From the NCBI RefSeq assembly GCF_963676685.1, contig NC_092355.1, positions 50,096,001-50,160,000 of the forward strand: a stretch of 64,000 nt of DNA, in the 5' to 3' direction. This document shows, in pieces, positions 4,987 to 64,000 of the stretch. Positions within the stretch are counted from its first letter, which is position 1; each line of letters starts with the position of its first letter. The position numbers and the translations under genes are program-made. The stretch comes from Mytilus edulis (taxonomy: Eukaryota). Below the pieces are notes generated by a model, which was given only the letters and a program-made list of their open reading frames with translations, was not told the DNA's origin and made no database searches.

Positions 4987-6363
4987 TTTGATGTAGACGG
5001 CATATGCCTTGGACGACTGTTTGAAAGAAAGATACGATTAATGGCCTCAATAAAGTCACCTACTAAGTTGTCAAGAAGCATGATAGAAGAAATACTTACC
5101 ATTATAGCATGGTCGTTTAGTGATGACATTTCGGCGACTAACTTCAAATATCAATACAATGTAGAAAAGAAGGACTATGTGTTATATATACAAATATCTG
5201 GTGACTTGATAAATGAGCAATCATATGAGGAGGGGTTAAACATCGAAAAACAAATTGGTAAAGCACAGTGGCTAATACGTGTTTCTCCTCGAAATGGATT
5301 TACCTTTCAAGTAAATGTAGTGGGTGTAACAAAAGAACAAGGTGTTGACATACAGCTTTCGGAAGCTACCGTCAAGAATAAATTGAACCAATTTAAAGTT
5401 AACCAAAATGACAGCTTCGAAAAGAAATTATGTGCTAATAGTATTATTGAATGTGAAATATCGAATGACGTTGAAAATCCAAGAACAGTCATCACCGAAT
5501 TTGCTTGTGTTGATTTCATCGAACAACAACCAATTCTTTTCAGCACGAATATAAATATGAATGTTATAACATATACAGGTATGGGAATTTCTGTGATTGC
5601 ATTGACAGCATCTTTACTTGTTTATAGAAGGTTGGGTATGCACAGGAGTATCCCCGGTTCAAATGTAGAAAACCTTACAATTGCTCTGTTAATTTCAGAT
5701 ATAATATTCATGTTAGGAATAGGGGCTAATGATCTCTCTTTGGTTTGCTATAGTGTTGGAGTTGCACTCCATTATCTTTGGCTGGTAGTGTTTTCATTTA
5801 AATGTATTGCTTTGATTCACATGTGTCACTCTTTTACAAAATTGTCACTTATTTCTGGAGATATTGAGGTCGGAATGTTTTCTAAAAGGCCCTTTTTCAC
5901 ATTGCTCGGTCTCCTTCTCCCATGTTTATTTGTTGTACCAGCAGTCTTGATTGACTTTTTGGAGGTTGATGGTGTGAGTATTAATTACAGTGGGTCTATT
6001 TGTTTTCCAACGGGTTATCCAGGTAACTTGATATTTGTTTCTGCTCCTATAGGGCTGGCTGTCGTTATCAATATTACATGTCTGTTGTGTATTGCAGTTG
6101 TGATAACAAAACAGTCATTGGGAATACGCCACATTCGAAGATCAAATTCGTTCCAGTACCTCCCAGTGTTTGTGCGTATTAGTCTTGTGACAGGTATGCT
6201 ATGGATTTCAGGACTGCTCGGAGCCATTGTCCAAAATGAAGCAATTGAATACTTGTTTGTCATATGTTGTAGTTTCCAGGGACTGTTTATTGCCTTCGGA
6301 AACTTGACTACAAAACGTATTTTCCGTGAACTACGGAAACGTAAGCAACCATTAATCAAGTAA
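4987..6363 (+). CDS. last coding exon of a class B (secretin/adhesion/Methuselah-like) 7TM GPCR; upstream exon(s) lie outside the window
   Basis: Polypyrimidine + AG acceptor at 4985-4986, in frame with ORF 5041-6363; seven hydrophobic segments with class-B motifs (C...GVALHYLWLVVF, GLLLP, CSFQGLFI); paralogous exon at 63399. Confidence 0.9.
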   Translation, partial: FDVDGICLGRLFERKIRLMASIKSPTKLSRSMIEEILTIIAWSFSDDISATNFKYQYNVEKKDYVLYIQISGDLINEQSYEEGLNIEKQIGKAQWLIRVSPRNGFTFQVNVVGVTKEQGVDIQLSEATVKNKLNQFKVNQNDSFEKKLCANSIIECEISNDVENPRTVITEFACVDFIEQQPILFSTNINMNVITYTGMGISVIALTASLLVYRRLGMHRSIPGSNVENLTIALLISDIIFMLGIGANDLSLVCYSVGVALHYLWLVVFSFKCIALIHMCHSFTKLSLISGDIEVGMFSKRPFFTLLGLLLPCLFVVPAVLIDFLEVDGVSINYSGSICFPTGYPGNLIFVSAPIGLAVVINITCLLCIAVVITKQSLGIRHIRRSNSFQYLPVFVRISLVTGMLWISGLLGAIVQNEAIEYLFVICCSFQGLFIAFGNLTTKRIFRELRKRKQPLIK

Positions 6364-10071: not shown

Positions 10072-10558
10072 ATATATCTTTGTCAACAGGACAAGTTAAT
10101 ATTTTGTCAATTTTTTTTGAAAATTAAAGGAGTCAAATCTATACTAGCCAAAGTGTCGAGTACCGCTCAATTTCACTAAATCTTGTCTTATCTATTTATG
10201 AGTTTCAATATTTATTTCCTAATGGTATGTAAAATAGTGTTTGTTGTTATATGTGTTTCAATAAATATAAATAAAGGATACAAGATGAAATAAGTTTCGT
10301 TCTTGTTTATTACCATGTATAAGAATAGTTTTATGCAAGATCCCATCTTAAGTACCCAGATATTTTCGCTACGCTTATGGTAGACTTAGTTAGAAAGGCC
10401 CACTAGTAGAGATTGTTGCAAGATCCTCGATCTTTTTACCTCAGGTATACATGTTGGTCTTCAAATGGGTATGACGCGTATGAATTTTTTATGGACCGAT
10501 CCAAACATGATATTTCAATAAATCGTTGTCAAAGCCTATCCCAGCACCCCAACTCCAT

Positions 10559-10711
10559 AGATCATAAGGTGTTTCGAACATCTATTTAGACCAATTAGAA
10601 TTAACTAATTGACCATGGCCATGTCCATCGTCAGGAGCCCAAGCCATTGCATAGTGACACTTATTATAAAAATACTGTAATTTTTATTAGGGGCTCGACA
10701 CCTCATGATCT
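10559..10711 (-). ncRNA. type III hammerhead ribozyme (unit B copy 1)
   Basis: Minus strand: AGATCATGAGGT-GTC-GAGCCC...GGGCTC-CTGACGA-T-GGACAT...ATGTTC-GAAAC-ACCTTATGATCT; stem III 14 bp, stem I 6 bp, stem II 6 bp, full catalytic core; predicted cleavage between 10697 and 10696. Confidence 0.9.
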
Positions 10712-10803
10712 GTTTTATATTTTTCTATACTCTTTATCTACTTAACTTTGTTTATCAATTTAACGAACAAAGTTTAGAAACTATTTTCATAATCTGCAAC
10801 ATA

Positions 10804-11422
10804 TCAATTACCCAGAGTTGCTGATGTTACTGTGTCTTTCAAGTTTTTATGCATACGGAAAGCAAACAGAGGTCTTTTATCAAATAAAATAAAATGTTTG
10901 CCTCTTCGTCATCCTTCAATGTATCCCATTGATTTAAGATATTGTTCTTTACGTGTGATTTCTGTCTTGAAAACACTGTTGAGAATACCAAGGGAGGCCA
11001 CTGTAATACAGATTTGGGCTTTACCATTAATGTGTCTTTTCTTTGTTTTGCAGTCACTTCCTGCATAACCGGTTCATATCCAGATTTTGTTAAAAAAGGG
11101 ATGACGTTTAAAAATTTCACCCTTGTCAAAATGATATTTACATCTTAGTTTTCTTGCAAATTCATTGAAATCTGATGCAATACTAGATTTTGCAAATTTG
11201 GTCGAGGGAGACGGTAGATATTTTAATCCTATACTGAGTAACAAAATCTCATCGTCTTTTATTTTTTCAGTGGTGAATATTTTAACATATTCACGTGCTT
11301 TTTCAATTGATTTTTTTCCTCTTGAGAGAGCGAATCTATATCTTTCTATTTTCTGATAGAAGGCCTTTTTCATGATAGCCTTTTTTGTTTTTTTCGCTCT
11401 CTTAAAGTGTCTGTTAGCCATG
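10804..11422 (-). pseudogene. internally deleted PLE ORF (N-terminus fused to C-terminus, RT core missing, two frameshifts), copy 1
   Basis: MANRHF...LLSIGLKYLPSP...DFNEFARKLRCKY...HPF /fs/ TKSGYEP...PPLVFSTVFS...WDTLKDDEEANILF /fs/ DKRPLFAFRMHKNLKDTVTSATLGN*; aligns by eye with both ends of the 649-aa unit A protein. Confidence 0.85.
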
Positions 11423-12631
11423 CTTACAGATCGGAGGAAATCGCCAGAAGGCAGTGTGCAATTCATTTCTTGATGTTATATTGATTCTTTATCAAGCCTG
11501 TATGAACTCACCAACCAATCAGATATCAGTTACTCATTAGGAAACTAAATAAGGGGAAGAGGAGAACATCCCTCCTAGACATTGCAACCAATCACCATTC
11601 ATTGCTTTATAAACTAACACGTTTACCAGATGCATTTTGACAATTTGACTTTTTAATTTATCAGACAATCAAAAAGCATACATTTTTGTTTTGCAAATCT
11701 CAGCACTTTCTTATCAACTTATTCCTCTCACTAAAAATCTCTGACGTATTGGTTTTTACATTTACTTTCCTTGTATTATCATGTATGTATTACAACTTTA
11801 ACATGAAATTGACATAATTAATCAACCCTTTAACCTTTCGGTATAGATATTTTTCCAATTTAATATCTATTTTGACAGAAATGAAAAACACATTATCAAT
11901 GCACTATTGCTATTGCCGATAATAACCGTTGCATTTAATTATAACGTATTAATTATGACCACTTATCGTAAACAAATATCAAAAATTATCTTTGATGGTT
12001 TTATTTCTCAACTTTAAATAAAGATATATTTGTAAACATTTGTTTATCATCATAATTACATTGGGTTCATTGATAAACTAACCTTCTTTGTTCTGCTCTA
12101 TCAATTATCTATAAATTAAGCGTAACTCAAGAACTGATAAGATATTACACTTTTATTTACACACTTTACAGCTGTTTGTCAAAAAACATCACTAACGAAG
12201 TGTATAGGCACACGTTACATGTTTTATCTTCTTCCAATGACTTATCTGATGTTACACAGTTCAGTTAAATCATATCCATCGCTAGTTGCATTTATGTAAT
12301 TCAAGTTTGTTTATAAAACTGTATAAAATATAAAGCCATAACAGATCACTTGTGGGACTGCCCTTAAAGTGTCAGATTGCAATTTGAGACGATGTGGGTA
12401 AAACCCCAATTTTTTAGCATTGCTGATGATAGATATTTCCTCCAGTGAATAAGCAAATACAGGAAATTGCAGCAGTGTTCAAAATGCACCAAATAACCAC
12501 TTTATTGTGGTACGAGGAGATCATAAAGTCAACAAGATGTCAACTAAACAATTCTCAGGCTGACAGCGTGATAATAGCTCAAATATTTCAATAAATCGTT
12601 GTCAAAGCCTATCCCAGCACCCCAACTCCAT

Positions 12632-12784
12632 AGATCATAAGGTGTTTCGAACATCTATTTAGACCAATTAGAATTAACTAATTGACCATGGCCATGTCCA
12701 TCGTCAGGAGCCCAAGCCATTGCATAGTGACACTTATTATAAAAATACTGTAATTTTTATTAGGGGCTCGACACCTCATGATCT
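12632..12784 (-). ncRNA. type III hammerhead ribozyme (unit B copy 2)
   Basis: Same sequence as 10559-10711, offset 2073. Confidence 0.9.
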
Positions 12785-12876
12785 GTTTTATATTTTTCTA
12801 TACTCTTTATCTACTTAACTTTGTTTATCAATTTAACGAACAAAGTTTAGAAACTATTTTCATAATCTGCAACATA

Positions 12877-13495
12877 TCAATTACCCAGAGTTGCTGATGT
12901 TACTGTGTCTTTCAAGTTTTTATGCATACGGAAAGCAAACAGAGGTCTTTTATCAAATAAAATAAAATGTTTGCCTCTTCGTCATCCTTCAATGTATCCC
13001 ATTGATTTAAGATATTGTTCTTTACGTGTGATTTCTGTCTTGAAAACACTGTTGAGAATACCAAGGGAGGCCACTGTAATACAGATTTGGGCTTTACCAT
13101 TAATGTGTCTTTTCTTTGTTTTGCAGTCACTTCCTGCATAACCGGTTCATATCCAGATTTTGTTAAAAAAGGGATGACGTTTAAAAATTTCACCCTTGTC
13201 AAAATGATATTTACATCTTAGTTTTCTTGCAAATTCATTGAAATCTGATGCAATACTAGATTTTGCAAATTTGGTCGAGGGAGACGGTAGATATTTTAAT
13301 CCTATACTGAGTAACAAAATCTCATCGTCTTTTATTTTTTCAGTGGTGAATATTTTAACATATTCACGTGCTTTTTCAATTGATTTTTTTCCTCTTGAGA
13401 GAGCGAATCTATATCTTTCTATTTTCTGATAGAAGGCCTTTTTCATGATAGCCTTTTTTGTTTTTTTCGCTCTCTTAAAGTGTCTGTTAGCCATG
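12877..13495 (-). pseudogene. internally deleted PLE ORF, copy 2
   Basis: Same as 10804-11422, offset 2073. Confidence 0.85.
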
Positions 13496-14730
13496 CTTAC
13501 AGATCGGAGGAAATCGCCAGAAGGCAGTGTGCAATTCATTTCTTGATGTTATATTGATTCTTTATCAAGCCTGTATGAACTCACCAACCAATCAGATATC
13601 AGTTACTCATTAGGAAACTAAATAAGGGGAAGAGGAGAACATCCCTCCTAGACATTGCAACCAATCACCATTCATTGCTTTATAAACTAACACGTTTACC
13701 AGATGCATTTTGACAATTTGACTTTTTAATTTATCAGACAATCAAAAAGCATACATTTTTGTTTTGCAAATCTCAGCACTTTCTTATCAACTTATTCCTC
13801 TCACTAAAAATCTCTGACGTATTGGTTTTTACATTTACTTTCCTTGTATTATCATGTATGTATTACAACTTTAACATGAAATTGACATAATTAATCAACC
13901 CTTTAACCTTTCGGTATAGATATTTTTCCAATTTAATATCTATTTTGACAGAAATGAAAAACACATTATCAATGCACTATTGCTATTGCCGATAATAACC
14001 GTTGCATTTAATTATAACGTATTAATTATGACCACTTATCGTAAACAAATATCAAAAATTATCTTTGATGGTTTTATTTCTCAACTTTAAATAAAGATAT
14101 ATTTGTAAACATTTGTTTATCATCATAATTACATTGGGTTCATTGATAAACTAACCTTCTTTGTTCTGCTCTATCAATTATCTATAAATTAAGCGTAACT
14201 CAAGAACTGATAAGATATTACACTTTTATTTACACACTTTACAGCTGTTTGTCAAAAAACATCACTAACGAAGTGTATAGGCACACGTTACATGTTTTAT
14301 CTTCTTCCAATGACTTATCTGATGTTACACAGTTCAGTTAAATCATATCCATCGCTAGTTGCATTTATGTAATTCAAGTTTGTTTATAAAACTGTATAAA
14401 ATATAAAGCCATAACAGATCACTTGTGGGACTGCCCTTAAAGTGTCAGATTGCAATTTGAGACGATGTGGGTAAAACCCCAATTTTTTAGCATTGCTGAT
14501 GATAGATATTTCCTCCAGTGAATAAGCAAATACAGGAAATTGCAGCAGTGTTCAAAATGCACCAAATAACCACTTTATTGTGGTACGAGGAGATCATAAA
14601 GTCAACAAGATGTCAACTAAACAATTCTCAGGCTGACAGCGTGATAATAGCTCAAATATTTCAATAAATCGTTGTCAAAGCCTATCCCAGCACCCCAACT
14701 CCATAGTTTATCAATGTCTGTATGAACTCA

Positions 14731-15957
14731 CCAAAAATTCACCGTCTTGAAACAGAGACGTTTAAACAAATACAACATGATGGATTAAATGAATTAAATA
14801 TAATTCCACCTGGCAGACCAATTATATCACAGTGTGGTTCTGTAACTGAACTTATAGGTCATTACGTTGACTATTTTCTTATACCAATAGTTCAAAATCA
14901 GTCTACATATATAAAAGATACTACATCGTTCATTAATATCATTGAGAAATTAAAACCTATGGCAAACAGCCTTTTGGTTTCATATGATATAACACAGATG
15001 TTTACTAATCTACCTCAAGAAGCGTTATTGAGTGCGGTTGAACGAGCCTATGACAGTTTTGACAAATCAAACTTCAAAGTCAATGCTCCGCCAGTCAATG
15101 TATTAATACATTTGTTGAGAATTATTTTAGAAAACAATGTATTTGAATTTGATGGGAAAATTTACAAACAAGTAATAGGTACGGCAATTGGTGCAGTTCC
15201 TTCACCGGAAATCTGTGACATACTTATGTTTGAAATAATGAATCAAATTATTTCTGCATTTCAATATAAAGACAAAATATTCTATCATGGCAGATATAGA
15301 GACGATGGATTCATAATATATGATGGAACATCAGATGAAATTATAGATTTTTTTCGTCTAGCAAATGATTATAACCCCTTATTAAAGTTCACCTATGAAA
15401 TCAAAAACGATAAAATGTCGTTCTTGGATGTTGATGTAATTAAAGGTCAAAGATTTACAACATATGGCATTCTTGACCTCGAAATACATTTTAAAGAAAC
15501 AAATTCTTATCTGTTTCTGCACAGAAATAGCTGTCACTCACAGCATGTATTCAGAGGATTTATTAAAGGTGAAGCAATACGGCAAATTAGAAATACAAGT
15601 GATCATAACAAATTAATAAACAATCTAACTAATTTCAAAGTGAAATTATTAGATAGGGGTTATGATAACGTGGAAATAGATGATAGTATTACTGATGCTT
15701 TATCAATTGACCGTACTGATTTATTACAACAAAACAAATCTAAAGAGAAGCAAAGTATTCCGTTAGTTTTAATAACTAAATATAATCCATATATACGTAA
15801 AATAAAGAAACGTATAATGAAACACTGGCATTTATTACAGTTCGACGAAGACTGTGTACAAATATTCAATACAGCACCAATAGTTGCGTATAGCAAACAT
15901 AAAAGTATTGGAGATATGCTTAGTAGATCAAAGTTAAAGACTTTAACATTAAATTGA
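14731..15957 (+). pseudogene. 5'-truncated copy of the PLE RT ORF
   Basis: Identical to the C-terminal ~408 aa of the full ORF; the ATG at 14722 lies in junction filler sequence. Confidence 0.85.
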
Positions 15958-15962
15958 CAGTT

Positions 15963-16136
15963 GGACCCCTGATGATGGTAGATCTGTCATAATAACTAGA
16001 TATTTTGAAGAAGAATTAAAATATAAATATATCAATATGATAATTTTCATATTAGATTATATTCAAATAATGCATCTTAAAATGACCATCCCAAGCTTAA
16101 CTACCGAAACACGAAATTGATATTTGTGTCGGGTCC
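15963..16136 (+). ncRNA. type I hammerhead ribozyme with 119-nt loop II insert (unit A copy 1)
   Basis: GGACCC-CTGATGA-T-GGTAG-[119 nt]-CTACC-GAAAC-ACGAAATTGATATTTGT-GTC-GGGTCC; all three stems pair; predicted cleavage after C16130. Confidence 0.88.
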
Positions 16137-16566
16137 TATCAGCAATATGGGATGCGTGGTTGCATGGGTGTTTTATTATAACAAAATGTATTCATGGACG
16201 GCTGTCCTACTGCACCTTACCGAGAATCGTTTTCTGCATGGAGAATGATCCGCATTTCCTGTTTGATGGGATACGTATATGGTGTTAATTTATTGTTCCG
16301 GTGGACAAAGCTTTTAGCCTTGAGTTGAAAATACTTCATGACATGATTTACTTTGAAAAGTTCCACAAAACAATGTGACTCATTTATACATCATCAACAC
16401 GGACAATTTATCACTGCTATCTTATCCCCGCCTATCAACCCACGTGAATTTGGGCGGATCTTCTTTCAAGGTTTATAACATGTGTAAATCTAAAAATTCT
16501 TCAGCCACCCAATGTGAGCTCAACAAAGGCACGTAGCTAAGAGAATCACCCAATGTGAACTCAAAA

Positions 16567-18516
16567 ATGGCACGTCGTTTTAATAGAAATGCTAAAAAGC
16601 AAAAATTCCGATTCTACAATAAAAAAGAACGGAATAAATACAATATGCAGCAAAGAACTGCACATGCAAAAAAGCATGTAATTAATCTATCAAAACGCAG
16701 ATTATCAAATCAGGAATATATCCTGTTGGCGAAAGGCTTGAAATTTATACCAACGCCATCAAGCAAAAATGCAAAAATGTCTATACTAAAAGACTACAAT
16801 GAATTTGCTAGAAAATTACGATGTCGGTATATGTTCAGTCAAGAAAAAACTGACCTTCATCCATTTCGTAGCAATACAGGATATAAACCTGCCTCTACGT
16901 GCCATACGTTGGAAAATTATATAGATTTAACCAAGCTTGAATTGTCTTTTCTACCAATAGAAAGAAATGTAAAAAACAATCTTACTAAAGGCGAAAGAAT
17001 AGCGCTACGCAATTTGAAAAATGATGAAACAATAGTAATAAAAAAGGCAGATAAAAATTCAAATTGTGTTATTTTAGACAGGCTAGACTACATAACAGAA
17101 GTCACAAGACAACTAAATACTCAACATTACTGCCAATTAGATTCATTTAACATGGCAGAACTGAAAATCCAGGTCATTGAGTATATTAAATCATTATACG
17201 ACCAAGGCATAATCGACAAAATATCATTTAAATTTTTAACAAATGGTCAAAAATTAAGAGATGCACGATTAGGGAGAATTTATATTCTCCCAAAAATTCA
17301 CCGTCTTGAAACAGAGACGTTTAAACAAATACAACATGATGGATTAAATGAATTAAATATAATTCCACCTGGCAGACCAATTATATCACAGTGTGGTTCT
17401 GTAACTGAACTTATAGGTCATTACGTTGACTATTTTCTTATACCAATAGTTCAAAATCAGTCTACATATATAAAAGATACTACATCGTTCATTAATATCA
17501 TTGAGAAATTAAAACCTATGGCAAACAGCCTTTTGGTTTCATATGATATAACACAGATGTTTACTAATCTACCTCAAGAAGCGTTATTGAGTGCGGTTGA
17601 ACGAGCCTATGACAGTTTTGACAAATCAAACTTCAAAGTCAATGCTCCGCCAGTCAATGTATTAATACATTTGTTGAGAATTATTTTAGAAAACAATGTA
17701 TTTGAATTTGATGGGAAAATTTACAAACAAGTAATAGGTACGGCAATTGGTGCAGTTCCTTCACCGGAAATCTGTGACATACTTATGTTTGAAATAATGA
17801 ATCAAATTATTTCTGCATTTCAATATAAAGACAAAATATTCTATCATGGCAGATATAGAGACGATGGATTCATAATATATGATGGAACATCAGATGAAAT
17901 TATAGATTTTTTTCGTCTAGCAAATGATTATAACCCCTTATTAAAGTTCACCTATGAAATCAAAAACGATAAAATGTCGTTCTTGGATGTTGATGTAATT
18001 AAAGGTCAAAGATTTACAACATATGGCATTCTTGACCTCGAAATACATTTTAAAGAAACAAATTCTTATCTGTTTCTGCACAGAAATAGCTGTCACTCAC
18101 AGCATGTATTCAGAGGATTTATTAAAGGTGAAGCAATACGGCAAATTAGAAATACAAGTGATCATAACAAATTAATAAACAATCTAACTAATTTCAAAGT
18201 GAAATTATTAGATAGGGGTTATGATAACGTGGAAATAGATGATAGTATTACTGATGCTTTATCAATTGACCGTACTGATTTATTACAACAAAACAAATCT
18301 AAAGAGAAGCAAAGTATTCCGTTAGTTTTAATAACTAAATATAATCCATATATACGTAAAATAAAGAAACGTATAATGAAACACTGGCATTTATTACAGT
18401 TCGACGAAGACTGTGTACAAATATTCAATACAGCACCAATAGTTGCGTATAGCAAACATAAAAGTATTGGAGATATGCTTAGTAGATCAAAGTTAAAGAC
18501 TTTAACATTAAATTGA
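16567..18516 (+). CDS. Penelope-like reverse transcriptase, 649 aa, no GIY-YIG domain
   Basis: First ATG at 16567; PLE N-terminal motifs VINLS...LAKGLKFIP, KKADK, LPKIH, PGRPIIS; RT motifs YDITQMFTNL, QVIGTAIG, RYRDDG, FLDV; ends at PIVAYSKHKSIGDML, where the endonuclease linker normally begins. Confidence 0.93.
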   Translation: MARRFNRNAKKQKFRFYNKKERNKYNMQQRTAHAKKHVINLSKRRLSNQEYILLAKGLKFIPTPSSKNAKMSILKDYNEFARKLRCRYMFSQEKTDLHPFRSNTGYKPASTCHTLENYIDLTKLELSFLPIERNVKNNLTKGERIALRNLKNDETIVIKKADKNSNCVILDRLDYITEVTRQLNTQHYCQLDSFNMAELKIQVIEYIKSLYDQGIIDKISFKFLTNGQKLRDARLGRIYILPKIHRLETETFKQIQHDGLNELNIIPPGRPIISQCGSVTELIGHYVDYFLIPIVQNQSTYIKDTTSFINIIEKLKPMANSLLVSYDITQMFTNLPQEALLSAVERAYDSFDKSNFKVNAPPVNVLIHLLRIILENNVFEFDGKIYKQVIGTAIGAVPSPEICDILMFEIMNQIISAFQYKDKIFYHGRYRDDGFIIYDGTSDEIIDFFRLANDYNPLLKFTYEIKNDKMSFLDVDVIKGQRFTTYGILDLEIHFKETNSYLFLHRNSCHSQHVFRGFIKGEAIRQIRNTSDHNKLINNLTNFKVKLLDRGYDNVEIDDSITDALSIDRTDLLQQNKSKEKQSIPLVLITKYNPYIRKIKKRIMKHWHLLQFDEDCVQIFNTAPIVAYSKHKSIGDMLSRSKLKTLTLN

Positions 18517-18521
18517 CAGTT

Positions 18522-18695
18522 GGACCCCTGATGATGGTAGATCTGTCATAATAACTAGATATTTTGAAGAAGAATTAAAATATAAATATATCAATATGAT
18601 AATTTTCATATTAGATTATATTCAAATAATGCATCTTAAAATGACCATCCCAAGCTTAACTACCGAAACACGAAATTGATATTTGTGTCGGGTCC
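18522..18695 (+). ncRNA. type I hammerhead ribozyme (unit A copy 2)
   Basis: Same as 15963-16136, offset 2559. Confidence 0.88.
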
Positions 18696-19125
18696 TATCA
18701 GCAATATGGGATGCGTGGTTGCATGGGTGTTTTATTATAACAAAATGTATTCATGGACGGCTGTCCTACTGCACCTTACCGAGAATCGTTTTCTGCATGG
18801 AGAATGATCCGCATTTCCTGTTTGATGGGATACGTATATGGTGTTAATTTATTGTTCCGGTGGACAAAGCTTTTAGCCTTGAGTTGAAAATACTTCATGA
18901 CATGATTTACTTTGAAAAGTTCCACAAAACAATGTGACTCATTTATACATCATCAACACGGACAATTTATCACTGCTATCTTATCCCCGCCTATCAACCC
19001 ACGTGAATTTGGGCGGATCTTCTTTCAAGGTTTATAACATGTGTAAATCTAAAAATTCTTCAGCCACCCAATGTGAGCTCAACAAAGGCACGTAGCTAAG
19101 AGAATCACCCAATGTGAACTCAAAA

Positions 19126-21075
19126 ATGGCACGTCGTTTTAATAGAAATGCTAAAAAGCAAAAATTCCGATTCTACAATAAAAAAGAACGGAATAAATAC
19201 AATATGCAGCAAAGAACTGCACATGCAAAAAAGCATGTAATTAATCTATCAAAACGCAGATTATCAAATCAGGAATATATCCTGTTGGCGAAAGGCTTGA
19301 AATTTATACCAACGCCATCAAGCAAAAATGCAAAAATGTCTATACTAAAAGACTACAATGAATTTGCTAGAAAATTACGATGTCGGTATATGTTCAGTCA
19401 AGAAAAAACTGACCTTCATCCATTTCGTAGCAATACAGGATATAAACCTGCCTCTACGTGCCATACGTTGGAAAATTATATAGATTTAACCAAGCTTGAA
19501 TTGTCTTTTCTACCAATAGAAAGAAATGTAAAAAACAATCTTACTAAAGGCGAAAGAATAGCGCTACGCAATTTGAAAAATGATGAAACAATAGTAATAA
19601 AAAAGGCAGATAAAAATTCAAATTGTGTTATTTTAGACAGGCTAGACTACATAACAGAAGTCACAAGACAACTAAATACTCAACATTACTGCCAATTAGA
19701 TTCATTTAACATGGCAGAACTGAAAATCCAGGTCATTGAGTATATTAAATCATTATACGACCAAGGCATAATCGACAAAATATCATTTAAATTTTTAACA
19801 AATGGTCAAAAATTAAGAGATGCACGATTAGGGAGAATTTATATTCTCCCAAAAATTCACCGTCTTGAAACAGAGACGTTTAAACAAATACAACATGATG
19901 GATTAAATGAATTAAATATAATTCCACCTGGCAGACCAATTATATCACAGTGTGGTTCTGTAACTGAACTTATAGGTCATTACGTTGACTATTTTCTTAT
20001 ACCAATAGTTCAAAATCAGTCTACATATATAAAAGATACTACATCGTTCATTAATATCATTGAGAAATTAAAACCTATGGCAAACAGCCTTTTGGTTTCA
20101 TATGATATAACACAGATGTTTACTAATCTACCTCAAGAAGCGTTATTGAGTGCGGTTGAACGAGCCTATGACAGTTTTGACAAATCAAACTTCAAAGTCA
20201 ATGCTCCGCCAGTCAATGTATTAATACATTTGTTGAGAATTATTTTAGAAAACAATGTATTTGAATTTGATGGGAAAATTTACAAACAAGTAATAGGTAC
20301 GGCAATTGGTGCAGTTCCTTCACCGGAAATCTGTGACATACTTATGTTTGAAATAATGAATCAAATTATTTCTGCATTTCAATATAAAGACAAAATATTC
20401 TATCATGGCAGATATAGAGACGATGGATTCATAATATATGATGGAACATCAGATGAAATTATAGATTTTTTTCGTCTAGCAAATGATTATAACCCCTTAT
20501 TAAAGTTCACCTATGAAATCAAAAACGATAAAATGTCGTTCTTGGATGTTGATGTAATTAAAGGTCAAAGATTTACAACATATGGCATTCTTGACCTCGA
20601 AATACATTTTAAAGAAACAAATTCTTATCTGTTTCTGCACAGAAATAGCTGTCACTCACAGCATGTATTCAGAGGATTTATTAAAGGTGAAGCAATACGG
20701 CAAATTAGAAATACAAGTGATCATAACAAATTAATAAACAATCTAACTAATTTCAAAGTGAAATTATTAGATAGGGGTTATGATAACGTGGAAATAGATG
20801 ATAGTATTACTGATGCTTTATCAATTGACCGTACTGATTTATTACAACAAAACAAATCTAAAGAGAAGCAAAGTATTCCGTTAGTTTTAATAACTAAATA
20901 TAATCCATATATACGTAAAATAAAGAAACGTATAATGAAACACTGGCATTTATTACAGTTCGACGAAGACTGTGTACAAATATTCAATACAGCACCAATA
21001 GTTGCGTATAGCAAACATAAAAGTATTGGAGATATGCTTAGTAGATCAAAGTTAAAGACTTTAACATTAAATTGA
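19126..21075 (+). CDS. Penelope-like reverse transcriptase, 649 aa, second full copy
   Basis: Translation identical to 16567-18516. Confidence 0.93.
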   Translation: MARRFNRNAKKQKFRFYNKKERNKYNMQQRTAHAKKHVINLSKRRLSNQEYILLAKGLKFIPTPSSKNAKMSILKDYNEFARKLRCRYMFSQEKTDLHPFRSNTGYKPASTCHTLENYIDLTKLELSFLPIERNVKNNLTKGERIALRNLKNDETIVIKKADKNSNCVILDRLDYITEVTRQLNTQHYCQLDSFNMAELKIQVIEYIKSLYDQGIIDKISFKFLTNGQKLRDARLGRIYILPKIHRLETETFKQIQHDGLNELNIIPPGRPIISQCGSVTELIGHYVDYFLIPIVQNQSTYIKDTTSFINIIEKLKPMANSLLVSYDITQMFTNLPQEALLSAVERAYDSFDKSNFKVNAPPVNVLIHLLRIILENNVFEFDGKIYKQVIGTAIGAVPSPEICDILMFEIMNQIISAFQYKDKIFYHGRYRDDGFIIYDGTSDEIIDFFRLANDYNPLLKFTYEIKNDKMSFLDVDVIKGQRFTTYGILDLEIHFKETNSYLFLHRNSCHSQHVFRGFIKGEAIRQIRNTSDHNKLINNLTNFKVKLLDRGYDNVEIDDSITDALSIDRTDLLQQNKSKEKQSIPLVLITKYNPYIRKIKKRIMKHWHLLQFDEDCVQIFNTAPIVAYSKHKSIGDMLSRSKLKTLTLN

Positions 21076-21080
21076 CAGTT

Positions 21081-21254
21081 GGACCCCTGATGATGGTAGA
21101 TCTGTCATAATAACTAGATATTTTGAAGAAGAATTAAAATATAAATATATCAATATGATAATTTTCATATTAGATTATATTCAAATAATGCATCTTAAAA
21201 TGACCATCCCAAGCTTAACTACCGAAACACGAAATTGATATTTGTGTCGGGTCC
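21081..21254 (+). ncRNA. type I hammerhead ribozyme (unit A copy 3)
   Basis: Same as 15963-16136, offset 5118. Confidence 0.88.
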
Positions 21255-22958
21255 TATCAGCAATATGGGATGCGTGGTTGCATGGGTGTTTTATTATAAC
21301 AAAATCGATTTCTCAAATGAATAACAAAAATATAAAGATATCAAGATTTGGTATGATTACCAAGGAGGCAACTTTCTTCCAGTGTTCAAATGAAATCAAT
21401 GTAAGCAATCAAACGAATCGTACGACCTTCAACAATTAGAAGACCTATAACGTATGGTCGGTTATTGAAGGCGCCGACATAAAAAAAAAATAGGAAACAA
21501 TGTAAACGATGAAACCAAAGGTCTAATTTATAACAAAATGAAATACAAATATTGTAGACATCAACAACAACAATTGAACTACAATCTCGGTGTCTTAAGA
21601 CAGGCAAAAACGAGGGTGACGGGATTGATAAAGCTTGTGTAAGAACAAACTGTTAAAACAGACATCGGGTTAACTCAAAAACTCGGCACGATAACTGTTG
21701 TATCCCTTTGTAATAATAGATTGTATGTGTCCAACTGATGTTATGGTAAACATAAACAATGTTCTCATTTTATGTTTTTTCATGACTTTTATTTATTATG
21801 TTAAAAAAAAAAAATACGATATAATTTAGATTATATGTGTTTGAATAATGATATCGAAAATGAAAACTACTTATCCTCTATACATATTGTATATTGTATT
21901 TGTGTTGATAAGAGTAGTACATGTATATTAACCAATCAAAAAGAGAAATATGACACAAAACTAGATCATATGTTCTCAATTGATGATCATGATGATGTAG
22001 AAATAGAAAACAGTGTAATATGTAATTTATCTTATATGTATGTTTATTCACAAAATACCAACAAAAACATATGTCTGAAAGAAACAGATAATTTTAAAAC
22101 AAGCATTAAACCAACAAAAAGAAAAAACTTTTATTCACTAGTTAACAAAATGAAACGATCACTAGTTCTACTATCCACGTCATTAGGCTGTATTTGTTTA
22201 ATTCGGTTCATCACCAAAATGCTTTTATTACACGTAAGCACTGATTGTACAAACAAATCTTCTATTTTCTGCAATTCAAACAAGGATAATCGGAAAATAT
22301 ACCAACCACTTCATATTCCTACGAAAATTGCAAATATGGTACGCAACTACATGTAGTATATCACCAAATACCGCATCACAAACAGGAAGTACGAAACGAA
22401 TTGCACTCATATATTTTTGCACCATACTATCAAGACACACATATTCCACAACCAGCTATGCTAATCTTTTTGACGCAGTATATTCACTTGAAGTACAGAT
22501 CCATATCTTATTAAAACACATGATACACACATGTACAGCAGCGTTAAGTGAACATTTAAAAATCTCCAAAGAATTCTACACAAAAAGATATCATTTCCAG
22601 GTTCAAATGTATGGAAAATTTAAGACGTCATCAAAAACTGTTGAGAATATATTTCATTTGACCACAGTTATAATGTTGATGAGCACTCGAACACTCCTTA
22701 TTGAACAATTCAAATATCTGAAAATAGAAAAAGTAATTTCTGAAAATCAAGCTCCGATATACATACAGGCACAAGTACAAAACTGTATTATTGTAAAAAA
22801 CACATATTATAATGATACATATATATTATATATACTCATGCATTACTACTATTATACGTTTAGTCATAGTTGTATTGTATACAACAACTTAAAACAGTTT
22901 GTTATGATGTATATCTCTGTAGTAATCTTTGCTAATACATGTATAGTTCATTATTTAG

Positions 22959-25900
22959 ATGAGTAATAATTTAAATATTTGCTCCTTGAACTGCCAAGGG
23001 CTAGGAAAAAAAGAAAAGCGAGACAGACTATATATTTGGTGTGAAAATCAAAAATGTGACATCTTGTTTATTCAAGAGTCCCATTTCACCGATAAAAACA
23101 TAAATGTAATAAATAGTGAAACTAAATGTAAGATATACCATAGCTTTGGCAATTCCCTATCCAGAGGTGTTTCAATTTTAATTAAAGAAAACATAAATCA
23201 CAAAATAATAAATGAAATTAAAGATGAGGAGGGCAGGTTTATTCTAATTAATGTAGAACTTGATAATAACATCTTCACTTTAGTTAATTTTTATGCACCA
23301 AATATACAAAGAAATAGAAATTCTTTCTTCAAAAAAATAAACAACTTAATTGAAAATAATAGATTAGGCATTTTAATACTTGGAGGGGATATAAATGAAA
23401 GTCTGACTGAAAACGACAGAAAAAGTACAAGTACACAAAAATTTAATAAACCTGTAAATAGTTTGAAACAATTAATAAAAAAACATAAGTTAGTTGATAT
23501 ATGGAGAGAAATTAACCCAAACAAAAGACAGTTCACCTGGAGAAGGAAAAATAACTTTAACATAGCAAGCAGAATAGATTATTTTCTTATTAGCTCTGAT
23601 ATAAGACCACATATTACAGCAGCAGATATTAGACCCGCTGCTATTTCTTACACTGATCATCAGGCAATTTCATTAAAGCTAAGACACAAAGCACACAGTA
23701 GAGGCCGAGGTTTCTTTAAAATTAATAACAGTATATTGAATGACACAAAATATCAAAATCTCATTAATAACTTAATTCAAACTTATAAACAAAAAATACT
23801 TACTACGGCTGTAGATCCTCGAGTTAAGTGGGACGTTTTTAAAGCTGAAGTAAGAGACATAACCATTAAATACTGTAGGCAAAAACAAGCTGAAAATAAA
23901 AATGAAATAATTAAATTAGAACTGTCATTAAAAAAATTGAACGAAAATGCAGAAAACTTACAGGATAATAATGTTCAAAATAGAATAAACAATGCTGAGA
24001 AAAAACTAGAGAACCTTTACATAAATGAAGCAAAGGGAGCTCAGGTTAGATCACGTGTAAAATGGACAGAAGAAGGAGAAAAAAACACAAAATTTTTTAT
24101 AGGCCTTGAAAAATCCAGACAAACTCATAAAAATATTTCTGCACTTACGAATGAAAAAGGAGAAATTATAACAGATTCATCTGAAATTTTAAAGTTAGAA
24201 AAAAACTTCTATGAAAATTTATATAAAAGTACAAATCCTAATGAAAATGAAATAAAAAAATATATAACAGAAACAAAAGTAGATAAAACTCTTTCTCATG
24301 AGGAAACTCAAAATCTAGAAGGGGAGCTTACCATAAAGGAATGTACAGAAGCTATTAAATCTATGAAATTAAATAAATCACCGGGCATCGACGGGATCAG
24401 TGTAGAATTTTATCGAACCTTCTGGACAAATTTAAAAGAAATTGTTGTTAAAGTTTTTAACACATGCTATCAAAAGGAAGAAATGAGCACACTACAAAAA
24501 ATAGGAGTAGTCTCTTTATTATATAAAAAGGGAAACCCACTTCTTTTAGACAACTATAGACCAATTACTTTACTCAATGTTGATACAAAGCTTATGGCAT
24601 ATTCTTTAGCACAACGTCTTAAACCAATACTAACTAAAATCATCCATAGTGACCAAAATGGTTACATAAAAAATAGATATATAGGTTTCAACATTCGTCA
24701 AATTCAAGACATAATAGACCATGCAGAATACTTTAATATTGAAGGAGCATTGCTCTTCATAGATTTTTCCAAGGCCTTTGACTCATTGGAATGGCCATTT
24801 ATGTATGAAGCACTCAAGAAATTCGGCCTTCCAAATCCTTTTATCAAATGGGTTAAAACTCTGTACAAAGACATAACGGGTTGTATGTTAAACAATGGGT
24901 GGGTCTCATCACCATATAACATTAATCGCGGTATTAGACAAGGCTGCCCGTTAAGTTCCCTGATTTTTGTTATTGCTGTAGAAATTTTGTCCTGCAGAAT
25001 AAGACAAGACAACAACATCAAAGGTTTTCAAATTAAGTTAGATACTAAAACACACAGTTTAAAGATTTCTCAATTAGCTGACGACACAACACTTTTTCTA
25101 AAATCAAAAAATGAAGTACGTCACACTCTTAATATTATTGAAATCTTTGGAACGCTATCAGGTTTAAAATTAAATAGATCAAAAACTGAGGGCATTTGGT
25201 TAGGAAAATTAAAACATTGTAAAGATAAGTTTGAAAATATAACATGGAATAAAGGACCAATAAAAAGTCTAGGAGTTTATTTTGGAACAGATCGAGCTGA
25301 ATGTGATAAGCTGAATACTGAAAAAATAATACAGAAATGTGACAAATTAATAAGTAATTGGAAAAAAAGAAATCTTACAATGATAGGTAAAATAACAGTT
25401 GTAAAATCTCTTCTTATACCTAACCTTACATATTTAGCTTCAGTCACAAACCTACCACATGAATTTATTCAACAGTTTAAAACTATTATCTACAATTTTA
25501 TATGGGATGGTAAACGAGAAAAGGTCAAACGAACCACCCTTAGCAAAAATACTACTACGGGAGGGCTTAAAATGACAGATATAGACAATTATATAACTGC
25601 ACTACAAATAGCATGGATAAAAAGACTTACTGCAGATGATTTTGCTAACTGGGAAGTAATTCCGACATTTTACTTTAATAAATTTGGTGCTAATTTCATG
25701 CTACTTTACATGAATCTAGACAACATTTACTCAATACAAAACCTACATAAAACTTTACCAAAATTCTACTTAGAAATTGTAAAGTCTTGGTTCAAAGTAC
25801 AAAATTTAAATAATACCAAACTCAATATGAATTTTAAAAACATTAGACAACAAATCTTATGGGGAAACAAACTGATAAAATTTCAAGGAAAGTGTTTAGT

Positions 25901-26068
25901 TTTTATAAATTGGATAAAAGAAGGTATTATATACGTTAACGATATAATAGACCAAAATGGTAATATCTCTCAAGAAATAATATCTAATAAAATATCCTCA
26001 AAATCCAATTTAATGTTTGAAATTTCAAAACTTAATTATGCCTTACCAAATGAATGGCTCAAGGTACT
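22959..26068 (+). CDS. LINE ORF2 5' part (APE endonuclease + RT), interrupted by the CACTA insertion
   Basis: APE motifs SLNCQGL, IQESH, GGDIN, SRIDY, TDH; RT motifs KSPGIDG, YRPITLLN, DFSKAFDS, GIRQGCPLS, QLADD. Confidence 0.93.
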
Positions 26069-28008
26069 CACTGCATGAAATGATGCATTTATTAGAAAAT
26101 TATATCCATATAAAAGCTAATATATATTTAAAATTTCAAAATTTATCATTAGTATAATCCATTTGAAAATATCTTATTTACACCGTATTTACTTTAAGTT
26201 TAATATAACCAATAAACTTTTAAGAATAAACCCAATTTACATATACTTTTAAAGTTGTATAAATCTAAAATTTATTTTCTTTTAAATTACAGTAAACCTA
26301 TTTAAATGAGAAATTTAAATTAGGGAAAATTTAAGTAAATTTAATAAAATTAGAAATTTAAAGCAGAACAAATGTCTTTATTTTTCTGATTTAAACCATT
26401 TACTGTGAATTAAATTTAAAGTTTACAAATGCAATAATTAAAATAAACTTTTTATATACTAATTTAAATATTGTTAAATTTTCGTAAATTTGAAAATTAT
26501 TCATATGTAATTGCCATTAAATTTAATATTTAATATCAATTTATTACCCGCAATAAACTGTTCCAAATGTTCTAAGTAACTTCTTTCTTCCTTTTTTTGT
26601 TTGTTTGTTTGTTTGTTTGTTTGTTCGTTTTTGTTTTTTTTTTTCGATTGTTATAAGCGTCAAAAAGGGGAAAGGGTGTGTGCAAATATGTTGATAGTTT
26701 GATGATTTACAAATCTACAAGATTCACAATTAACAAGAGTGTTTGTATTTTTATAAAGATGGTTAGGTGAGACTTAGGCCATAACCTTATGCACAAATTT
26801 GCTGTACCATATGGCTGTAAAAGTTTCAAGCTTCAGGTGTATCTTGACTTGCTACATGCCCCTATGTCATTTATCGTTTTTTGTTCCGTAATGAGGTAAA
26901 AAAGAAAAAAAAAGAACTGCATTTTGCTTCTAATATTCTAAACGCTAAAAAACGTTAAAAAGGACACCGGCACTTTGACTCAGCAAAAGGTAATTCGATC
27001 AATCAGTAATCAGAAGACTCTGGACTATGAATCTTAGAAAAGACTGCCCTGAGAATATTTTCACATCAAACAATTAGAATCACGAAATTGCAACGATAAA
27101 CACCAAAATCGAGCAGCACACCTATATCATATTTCCGATACTCAAGAAGTACATTTTGCAATATAAAACTCTGATATTATATTTTTCTTATTTACACAAG
27201 AAGCCCCGGAACAAGCTATTTAGAAGTATTAATAATAAAGTAAATACATTTTATGTGGTCATATTCTTTATTATACACATTCAAATAGCTACATGTTTGA
27301 AGAAGTGTTACATATTTGGCATCACATTCTGATCAAACCTTATTTTGATAAATATAAATTTAAACAAACTGAAAACGTATTCATTATATTTCTATATTCA
27401 TTTTTTACATTAGATTTATGATTTTTTTTTTCTCGAGAAGTCAGCGTAATGATGACATGTACATATATGTTCATTATTCGCCATACCCTGTTCCTCGTGA
27501 GAAGGGGCAACCAAGATAAGCAAATCTATTTATAAAAAACCATAAAAATAAATGTAATGAATTTTGTGAATTGATTAATAGTTTTAGTGGAAAAAAATGA
27601 TAAGACAAAACAAATGAATAACACATCATAATCAATGACATACACATGCTACATTTCATTTAAAAATAAACATGTACATTATTGAAAGAATAGATCCAAG
27701 CGAACAAAATTTTACAAAAAAATAAACAATTGTGTACAAAAGTGAAAATATGTTTGTGTACAGCGCGTGTGTGTCAATCCGCCGCTTCCCTATCCCACCA
27801 AGCATATCAAATGGTTTTACGTTAAGGGAGAATGACCCGTGGTTCTTTTCATGTTTAGCTGAAACTGAATATAAACACAATGAAACGAGACGGCAACATA
27901 AGTTCAAATTAATTCGTCGTAATAAGTTAAACAAGACCATGTATGCATGCCAAAATGTTTATTAGTACATGTATCTGAAATGACTGATGGTCAAAACTCC
28001 ATATCACC

Positions 28009-35398: not shown

Positions 35399-35920
35399 GG
35401 TCACGTCCCATTAGTCCGACAACTATTATTCCGACAGCCCATTATTCCGACAGCCCAATACTCCGAAAGCCCACTATTCCGAAAACCCATTACTCCGACA
35501 GCCCATTACTCCGACAATGCATCTGTCTTGTGTGTATGCATGGATACATTTTCTTTAAGAAAGATACTATACCAATTTTGAAAAAGGACGCATACGGTCC
35601 AGACCGTACGCGTACGGTCCAAATACTCATACGGTCTGGAACATATATATAGAAAGTATTCGAACTACCTTAGTCTAATGTAATATATATACGGAGTTAT
35701 TTCTTAAAATATGTTATTACATAAACGTAATAATACAGACAGGCAAGAAATTAGTTAATCATGATACCCTGATACTTGACTTGATAAGTGTCTGAATTAT
35801 CGGTTCTCGGAGTATTGGGCTGTCGGATCAATAAGTTGTCGGACTATTGGGTTGTCAGACTAATGGGTTGTCGGACCAATGGGCTGTCGGACTAATGCGC
35901 TGTCGGAATAATGGCGTGTC
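35399..35920. mobile_element. foldback-type MITE with arrays of ~16-bp subterminal repeats
   Basis: (CCCATTATTCCGACAG)n on the left and inverted (CTGTCGGACTAATGGG)n on the right; 8-bp TSD ATGTACAC at 35391-35398 and 35921-35928. Confidence 0.85.
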
Positions 35921-37894: not shown

Positions 37895-38906
37895 ATATAA
37901 CTGACCCAGATACACACAGTATACAGTGTTCGTTTTAAAACAAATATAATTGCGTCGTCAAGGGCCATCATATCACATATATGATATCAGAGACGTAGAT
38001 AACAACCTGTTAAGACCTGTAAAAACGACAGACAACTTTCGAGACGTTCCGAGAATTTTATTCTGACTTCCGGCCGAAAGTTATCGAGTGGCCCATAGAC
38101 ACATCCAAAACACCCCAATATATAAGCCAATATATAAGCATGAACCCCTCAGGCGGTTCATGCAAAAAAAAAATACGGATCCGATATGATTGCCATTGAG
38201 AAAACTTTCCGCAAGAGACCAAATGAGACAGAAACTAAGAGATATGGGTCACCATACGGCCTTCAACAATGAGAAAAGCCTATACCACGTAATCAGCTAT
38301 AAAAGGCCCCGACATTACAAATGCAATACAATAACATAAGTTCGTTTTCTTTGTTGTATCATTAAACACACAACTTATCAGTTGTCTTTTGAACAGCAAG
38401 CATACGACATGAAAATAACACTAGCAAGCCTCACCACTTCTCTCGACATTGACAAAAATGGCCTTGTATATAGGTTAATATCCATGGTGATAGAGATGAA
38501 AGAAAATCAGTTTAAGCTCAAATTTGGATGTTTTTTCTCCATCTTACTTAGGGTCAAACAGGATTACCAAGGCCTGTAGTTCAACATTTACTATGACAAA
38601 ACAAAACGGGATGGTCGGTCTGGGTACTTTAGCAACTTAAGTACTCTAACATTATATTCACGATTGAAGGGTACACAGACATTTGAATAAATGAAAATAT
38701 GAGACTTTAGTTTTCCATTTCTTTTAAATTTTTGCAGTGATTTCATCTGAATTCAATTATATTTGAAAATGCTTTGATAAAAAGTGTATTTCCCTATTTA
38801 TTATTTTACAAAGAACCAATGAACATTTATAATAACATCACTCTGTTTCTTAATATTTACACTGAGAAATAGTATAAGTAAAGCTGTCTTTATTTTTTCA
38901 GCGAGA

Positions 38907-63398: not shown

Positions 63399-64000
63399 TT
63401 TGAGGTAGACGGCATATGCTTGAAACGTTTTTACGACAAAGAAATATTTGTATATGCCTCACTGGTGTCGTCTGCTAATTTGTCGGAAAGAATGATAGAA
63501 GAAATACTCACTGTTATGTCATGGTCGTTTAGTGATGAGATTTCGGTGAATATCTTTAGCTTTACTTACAACAAAGAATGGATAGACAATCTTTTTCAAA
63601 TAGTAAACGTGCGTATTTATGGCAAGACGGTAGAAAAGAAATCATATGAAGAGGGATTAATCATCGACAACAAACTTGATAAAGCACAGTGGCTAATACG
63701 TGTTTCCCCCGAAAACGGATCTGTGTTTGAAGTAAATACTGTGGTTTTACCGAGGAAAGGAAGAACTTACAAAACAGAACTGTCAAAAGCTATTGTCCAG
63801 AATAAATTGAACCAATTCAAATCTTTCGTTAATGACAGCTTTGAGAAAAAAATATGTGCCAAGAGTGTCATTGAATGTGAGATATCGAGTGACGTTGAAA
63901 ATCCAAGAACAGTCATCACAGAATTTACTTGTGTTGATTTCATCGACCAACAACCAATTGTTACGAGCACGAATATAAATATGAATGTTATAACATATAC
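63399..64000 (+). CDS. exon 2 of second GPCR paralog, runs off the window end
   Basis: Acceptor TTTTTTGTACACAG at 63398; open frame FEVDGICLKRF...NPRTVITEFTCVDF...NMNVITY, colinear with 4987-5577. Confidence 0.9.

Follow-up and report, generated by a model that had tools for sequence, protein, structure and literature searches.

We found an intact type III hammerhead ribozyme, quite probably a circular permutation of the type I ribozyme of the same clade, at the 3′ end of a deleted copy (unit B) of an endonuclease-less Penelope-like element (PLE) in Mytilus edulis. This group of animal retroelements carries hammerheads in two orders, one of which, type III, we did not find in published accounts of such elements, and both are likely to have come from the rearrangement of a single ancestral ribozyme. 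Unit B lies in the window (the whole 64-kb stretch of DNA that was analysed) head to head with an array of a second element, unit A, which carries the type I order (Table 1).

The role of the hammerhead in PLEs has been called unclear (PMC8557442). How the three hammerhead permutations are related to one another can usually not be tested, because the RNA is too short for a tree. Since a single reverse transcriptase (RT) family bears both orders here, a protein tree can be used to locate the switch, and the two forms can be compared biochemically.

Table 1. Coordinates of the ribozymes, arrays and coding remnants of units A and B (window positions, except in the last line)
Feature	Position	Strand	Remarks
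Type III hammerhead, unit B copy 1	10559..10711	-	motif parse, descriptor and fold
Open stem III	10711-10698 / 10572-10559	-	13 pairs plus the A15.1-U16.1 pair, 14 bp
Cleavage triplet GUC	10699-10697	-	predicted cut after C10697
Stem I, 6 bp	10696-10691 / 10640-10635	-	closes a 50-nt loop
Core CUGACGA and extra U	CUGACGA at 10634-10628	-	sequence parse
Stem II, 6 bp	10626-10621 / 10581-10576	-	closes a 39-nt loop
GAAA	10575-10572	-	sequence parse
Predicted pseudoknot, 6 bp	10647-10642 (loop I) / 10620-10615 (loop II)	-	goes beyond the original prediction
Hairpin within loop II	about 10612-10591	-	goes beyond the original prediction
Type III hammerhead, unit B copy 2	12632..12784	-	identical to copy 1, 2073 bp away
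Array of deleted B	10510..14706	-	two identical 2073-bp units plus 51 nt
B tail	10510..10558	-	10510 is +187 from the cut, within the fixed 3′-end zone of the family
B RT gene remnants	10806..11475	-	lacks about 1347 bp at 11069/11070 and has small indels; second copy at +2073
ORF1-loss junction of B	12187..12410	-	break at 12275/12276; about 850 bp holding ORF1 missing
24-nt filler	14707..14730		joins the B and A arrays at their 5′-truncated ends; similar to the B sequence that precedes the RT gene
Array of A	14731..21305	+	2.57 identical 2559-bp units, 5′-truncated; ends +57 from the cut site
Intact 659-codon RT frame of A	16537..18516	+	lacks an endonuclease domain; second copy 19096-21075, truncated copy 14731-15957
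Type I hammerhead of A	15963..16136	+	further copies 18522-18695 and 21081-21254
Predicted cut sites of A	after 16130, 18689 and 21248	+	pseudoknot position as in B
ORF1 of full-length B, 266 aa, RGG-rich end	L031 3913-4710	-	genome search

Structure of the unit B ribozyme

The unit B motif is a type III hammerhead, as originally predicted, with an open stem III of 14 bp and long loops I and II. It has the CUGANGA core, the GAAA, an NUH site and the G10.1-C11.1 and A15.1-U16.1 pairs, and its stems I and II are closed by loops while stem III is open, the arrangement that type III requires. The type III descriptor gave it a score of 48, with zero for every other topology, and none of 128 control pieces, each 800 nt long and taken from elsewhere in the window, reached a score of 31. 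Its fold has a z-score of -4.9, and 0 of 200 shuffles were equally low. The open stem I that had been described for unit A was confirmed as well, and the type I motif was found just 3′ of the stop codon in all three copies.

When the window was scanned with Rfam to E = 1, no hammerhead match was obtained for either the B or the A motif (a single weak hit was unrelated), and the long loops are the likely reason. In a pseudoknot-free fold, the hammerhead form of B lies 2.1 kcal/mol above the minimum, with a probability of 0.03 for stem II and 0.27 for stem I. Since the hammerhead form is above the minimum and stem II rarely forms in this model, from which the energy of the pseudoknot is excluded, slow or partial cutting by the B ribozyme is plausible.

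Unit B as a deletion derivative

Searching the genome with the 3′ part of B gave at least 60 matches, with 40 of the 169 candidates scored. Full-length B arrays are present on C7 and C9, where the units measure 4262 and 4349 bp and the type III motif is identical in kind. These units carry a 266-aa ORF1 with an RGG-rich end and an uninterrupted 688-codon RT frame; 12 of the 146 matches listed in the protein search had uninterrupted frames of 688 codons. No Pfam match at the cut-off and no usable Atlas hit were obtained for ORF1. Similar frames of 207-266 aa with a basic end were seen in 8 of the 16 families whose upstream DNA was examined and also in the metagenome relative L217, with none in A.

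Compared with full-length B, the window copy is missing about 850 bp around ORF1 and 1347 bp of the RT gene, while the remainder is about 94% identical. The deletions and small indels confirm that its ORF is broken, as had been noted. The claim built on this, namely that a dead ORF beside an intact ribozyme implies selection at the RNA level, fared less well. Window B derives by internal deletion from an intact 4262-bp element with the same ribozyme, so that its dead ORF says little, and the pattern is mostly explained by a young deletion derivative of parents with intact 688-codon frames. What is left of the claim is a mild signal in the ribozyme, whose 3 differences from the full-length element in 153 nt are confined to loops, compared with about 6% divergence in other parts (Fisher p = 0.04). 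The tail has 0 differences in 49 nt, and the dead 5′ ORF remnant is about equally conserved, with 9 differences in 352. Judged from its sequence, window B fits an ordinary non-autonomous copy that retains putative cis signals.

Distribution of the two orders on the RT tree

Relatives were taken from two protein searches (the best 144 of 5313 and the best 144 of 8307 candidates scored), and 80 regions were hand-picked to cover divergent entries; the resulting 78 RT sequences formed 25 families at 80% identity. Fourteen of these sampled families are type I and 11 are type III. Downstream of the ORF, a complete hammerhead was recognised by the descriptor in 22 of them, of which 13 are type I and 9 type III; the remaining three are degraded, and inspection by eye assigned one to type I and two to type III. 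Topology was assigned by eye in families 19 and 21, and families 13 and 18 (degraded, near family 3) were omitted from the trees. The opposite topology obtained a score in a single family only (20 against 40).

The RTs of A and B are 40% identical and a clade uniting the two was rejected by the AU test (p-AU 0.0011), so that the description of A and B as sister elements is not borne out. B sits in a clade of eight type III families, with a support of 97/97 in the careful tree under the simpler model. An expanded quick tree, to which 43 sequences (42 homologues and L217) were added, grouped 10 of the 11 type III families (SH-aLRT 99) and placed the eleventh as sister to a type I group (88); in the same tree, the type I group of families 22-24 falls among type III families (support 88-89).

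Mapping topology on the RT tree was the check proposed with the original prediction. It gave two changes in all three trees, compared with about eight for shuffled labels (0 of 500 as low), for topology data that come from one genome except for one locus and with an outgroup tree built without the reference PLE set. AU tests rejected neither the monophyly of type III (p-AU 0.31) nor that of type I (0.10). The starred (supported) branches alone force one change, and the deep branches are poorly supported.

Type I is most likely the ancestral order, the switch having gone from type I to type III, since the GIY-YIG-bearing relatives carry a minimal type I motif and the literature describes PLE hammerheads as type I. 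The minimal motif, with a 5-nt loop II, was present at 9 of the 13 loci of such relatives examined in the same genome, and no hammerhead motif was found at the other 4. We take the nearest endonuclease-bearing relatives to be Neptune-like from a linker and a CCHH motif recognised by eye. Three type I families (L140, L142 and L148), with the motif just 3′ of the RT stop, have a U3-A8 core and stem III loops of 43-58 nt.

Beyond this genome, 79 candidate stretches from viral contigs included no relative, and metagenome contigs gave 15 loci, among them family A itself (L216) and 13 that are partial or distant. L217, a separate metagenome record, is a two-ORF relative with a type I motif. No type III relative was present among the viral or metagenome contigs searched.

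A probable single ancestral ribozyme in two orders

In type I the core precedes the cut, and in type III it follows the cut. Both orders share a predicted pseudoknot, formed between the beginning of loop II and the bases immediately upstream of the stem I strand that leads into CUGA. It has at least 4 bp in 18 of 21 families and fewer than 4 bp in 3, as counted in pairing windows chosen after the motif had been seen. Its strands vary by family yet stay complementary (UGACAG/CUGUCA in A, AUGGCU/GGCCAU in B and ACGUGG/CCACGU in family 7). The pairing score was 12.76 within a family's own strands against 9.61 across families, a value that 0 of 20,000 permutations reached, and the pairing was also significant within each order (p = 0.002 for type I; p = 0.004 for the nine type III families). 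In 16 of 21 families, loop II continues after the pseudoknot strand with a hairpin, which reaches p ≤ 0.05 individually in 9 of the 21, and the cut site lies 64-173 nt past the stop in 16 of 21 families of both orders, the stop positions being approximate.

The original proposal that one ancestral ribozyme was permuted within a PLE lineage is thus supported by the shared pseudoknot and the two topology changes. We consider permutation from a single ancestor the best reading because the shared pseudoknot covaries, because only two changes are needed on the RT tree and because the endonuclease-bearing relatives have a minimal type I motif. Two other likenesses that had been taken as signs of kinship are weak ones: 10 of 21 families have the extra U, which has been described for PLE hammerheads in general (PMC4209133), and GAAACAC is present in many families of both orders. 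A permutation of this kind could come about if the ribozyme region were duplicated locally and the outer halves were lost, which would move the core from before the cut to after it. Duplication with loss of the outer halves has been named as a model for ribozyme permutation, with convergence as the alternative (PMC10085705). Type III would have had either two origins or one origin followed by one reversal. No intermediate element with both orders was found among the families sampled and, by eye, no remnant of the old core was seen before the type III motifs.

In a reading that keeps the permutation, and that we consider possible but less likely than not, the template is a circular RNA, joined at the cut and copied by a rolling circle, with the ORFs shifting from loop I to loop III. 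Such a template has been proposed for PLEs (PMC4209133) and shown for retrozymes (PMC7229834). It would suit the long near-identical arrays (one difference in 5738 bases compared, and six consecutive units on C7) and also the 59 exact matches to the 22 bases after the B cut that we found genome-wide, 52 of which have an intact site; the remaining 7 consist of 5 +1 junctions, spread over three loci, and 2 uninterrupted copies with a single-base change. However, in three copies (L045 and L039, with L151 partly covered) the sequence passes through an entire unit with its intact ribozyme before it stops at +1, and copies that end in this way need a linear template with a cut 5′ end. A circle would, besides, alter the intermediate and not the permutation; circles and uncut multimers yield equal DNA, the junction of a circle would be identical in sequence to that between tandem units, and both may occur.

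Independent acquisition of the type I and type III ribozymes, by capture from outside or by convergence, would make the shared pseudoknot a common solution, and we judge it improbable. In its favour, the primary sequences have low similarity outside the core, the pseudoknot strands of A and B differ, and a single capture would fit the unrejected monophyly of type III. Loop I-II pseudoknots are common among hammerheads (PMC3088659), convergent hammerhead origins have been discussed (PMC10085705), and the RTs of the clade join RNAs of different families. On the other hand, the pseudoknot has the same register on both sides of the core, the two orders share the layout of loop II (strand, hairpin and A-rich linker), the stem III bases are shared in many families, the distance from stop to cut is alike, and a type I group is nested among type III families.

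Copy ends, probable cutting and the likely start of reverse transcription

Genomic copies that start exactly at the predicted cut were found in both orders. In type III families, 13 of the 41 distinct 5′ junctions within -250 to +330 of the cut are at -1/+1 (6 of 9 families), and in type I families 11 of 92 are (6 of 12 families). If the ends were uniform, about 0.14 and 0.3 would be expected (binomial 2e-22 and 4e-14), although the junctions of any one locus cannot be treated as independent and split alignments are counted in the denominators. Because 5′ ends pile up at the predicted cut in both orders, cutting in vivo is likely, and the predicted cleavage of B at the GUC gains support from genomic copies starting at +1. 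RNA reads on full-length B were sparse (68, 60, 10 and 7 in four runs, 145 in all); their ends do not pile up, and many enter the flanking DNA at the tail.

That the motif folds but does not cut in vivo, being a structure for RT binding or pausing with +1 ends made by pausing or microhomology, is very improbable. Several observations fit it: a competing fold is favoured over the hammerhead form when the pseudoknot is left out, the site is read through in most copies, some 189-bp repeats in B share 4 bases of microhomology, and in the anole PLE zero reads ended at the cut and cleavage was dispensable in vitro (PMC11167929). Against it, 12 of the 21 families, of either order, have +1 ends, most of which abut unrelated sequence with no microhomology at the joint; the two orders differ in local structure at +1 but not in the cut site, and the cores are intact or covarying (U3-A8 in three families).

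Of the 3′ alignment ends, 41 of 103 in B lie between +183 and +195, and 30 of 87 in A between +50 and +62. Further peaks, at -91 in A and at -195, -372, -2043 and -2383 in B, were excluded as indels or a known deletion junction. By analogy with the anole PLE, for which internal initiation has been shown in vitro (PMC11167929), the fixed 3′-end zone of B is likely to mark where reverse transcription starts. A GGAU(U/A)GG-like motif is found about 30 nt before the 3′ end in the window (10520-10545) and in families 6, 8, 17, 19, 20, 21, 22 and 23, and may be an RT recognition signal. In the tails at L181, L179, L174 and L140, the segment from +1 to +59 (or +6 to +80) is often present in short tandem runs. 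Targeting to telomeres was rejected, as none of the 3′ junctions, 30 of A and 41 of B, carried telomeric repeats and the positions are interior to chromosomes.

Pieces that run from +1 to the tail sit behind the tail of another element, which can belong to another family (A to family 17, and family 17 to family 20), and A-B composites recur on C6, on C9 and in this window. Since pieces of different RT families are joined within single inserts, the RTs of the clade appear to jump between RNAs of different families. Tail-to-cut or tail-to-truncation joints between different RT families in one insert are located at L055 (about 2949), L155 (about 4692), L037 (4948) and L097 (3451). A full-length B copy at L045 (9445-9455) turns back on itself precisely at the cut site, and similar strand-switch joints occur in RNA reads.

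In the mechanism that we propose, read-through transcripts of tandem arrays would be partly cut by the ribozyme, and this would set the 5′ end of the RNA. The RT would initiate internally, about 50 nt beyond the ribozyme, at +184 to +193 in B and +51 to +58 in A, primed by a free chromosomal 3′ end; it would pass uncut (or re-joined) ribozymes, halt at a cut 5′ end and often jump to another RNA, from the same family or a related one. A break could be extended at both ends in this way, after which the two would be joined, leaving head-to-head inserts such as the B/A composite. Deleted B would have kept its ribozyme and tail because it must be copied in trans. A wider reading, which we offer tentatively and give somewhat less than an even chance, is that these elements form an undescribed clade of endonuclease-less, non-telomeric mollusc PLEs, whose hammerhead went from type I to type III and back and cuts in vivo, and whose RTs patch breaks by stitching together cut RNAs of different families.

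Relation to known elements

RVT_1 matched below the cut-off, and the homologues include GIY-YIG-bearing RTs at 24-31% identity, as compared without a curated reference set. The hallmarks of PLEs are present: tandem or partial-tandem copies, a terminal repeat with a tail, inverted 5′ truncations and a hammerhead in the repeat. The best named matches to the A RT are Mytilus edulis proteins (98-99%), and oyster homologues are 40-43% identical. The GIY-YIG domain is absent from the ORFs of A and B, and PF01541 was found in 0 of the first 60 of 92 homologues. Membership in the endonuclease-bearing PLE clade is ruled out by the missing GIY-YIG, and membership in the telomeric Athena, Coprina or Terminon groups by the absence of telomeric repeats and the interior positions. 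A retrozyme is ruled out by units of 2.07-4.35 kb with RT genes or their remnants, in place of non-coding units below about 1 kb.

PLE hammerheads in the published descriptions available resemble those here in lying in a terminal repeat region, in forming head-to-tail arrays and in having an extra base between 9 and 10.1, G10.1-C11.1 and U3-A8 variants. In these descriptions they are all type I, minimal in metazoans and full in plants, fungi and protists, whereas the ones found here are full, monomeric and pseudoknotted and come in two orders. Those of fungi and protists are described as having no recognisable tertiary contacts, unlike ours. Type III had been called atypical of animal PLEs, and this holds: the main texts of the open literature that we searched gave type I only for PLEs and contained no report of type III motifs in them.

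Athena, Coprina, the Terminons and the Neptune-like MjPLE01 share with our elements an RT without GIY-YIG, an upstream second ORF, a 3′ hammerhead, tandem chains and a size class of 4-6 kb (PMC8557442, PMC6431247). The endonuclease-less telomeric PLEs differ from the elements here, which have telomeric repeats at 0 of 71 3′ junctions and occupy interior sites. In PAc, a Poseidon element of the green anole, fixed internal initiation downstream of the hammerhead gives the genomic tail, as seems to be the case here; unlike our elements, PAc has an endonuclease and its motif is described with stems I and II only, and RNA ends are absent at its cut site, whereas here genomic ends mark that site (PMC11167929).

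Toad and termite HDV-like RNAs, as well as hammerheads in termite and fly genomes, are type III with long loops and a Watson-Crick pseudoknot between loops I and II, as in B (PMC7936874). However, the termite genomic motifs are described as isolated, with no recognisable ORF within 2 kb, while ours are linked to ORFs, and in that report the pseudoknot consists of GCCR in helix I with YGGC in loop II, an arrangement opposite to ours (PMC7936874). Plant LTR retrozymes also have the type III order (PMC7229834, PMC7761336). Like deleted B, retrozymes consist of tandem units with one ribozyme each and need the RT of another element (PMC7229834, PMC7761336, bioRxiv 10.64898/2026.07.22.740005), but they are short and non-coding, and those of plants have LTRs and small loops (PMC7229834, PMC7761336). 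Animal non-LTR retrozymes are type I, unlike B (PMC7229834, PMC7761336, bioRxiv 10.64898/2026.07.22.740005), and the retrozyme of mussels has type I motifs in units of 350-390 bp (bioRxiv 10.64898/2026.07.22.740005).

Copies that start exactly at the cut in 12 families provide genomic evidence of cellular cutting, while the sole in vitro study found no such RNA ends. Permutation swaps the end of the cut RNA that bears the folded ribozyme and so offers a direct test of what use the fold is to the RT. If the wider reading above is true, these elements would form a natural permutation series dated by a protein tree, and they would be a candidate source of the type III hammerheads in animal genomes and of animal circular RNAs.

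Other features of the window

The filler between the two arrays (14707-14730) and a junction at L007 both start at a GGUGAG motif that precedes the B RT gene and resembles a splice donor or a preferred stopping point. An intact 1039-aa LINE-type ORF with an AP endonuclease and an RT (22959-26078, forward strand) lies 1.6 kb from the A array. Also on the forward strand are a 1001-codon frame matching Transposase_21 (CACTA-like) at 38823-41828 and a 7tm_2 receptor-like frame at 4987-6363, of which a diverged second copy is present at about 63380-64000. Two 16-bp tandem arrays (35411-35530 and 35789-35920) lie in inverted orientation about 290 bp apart.
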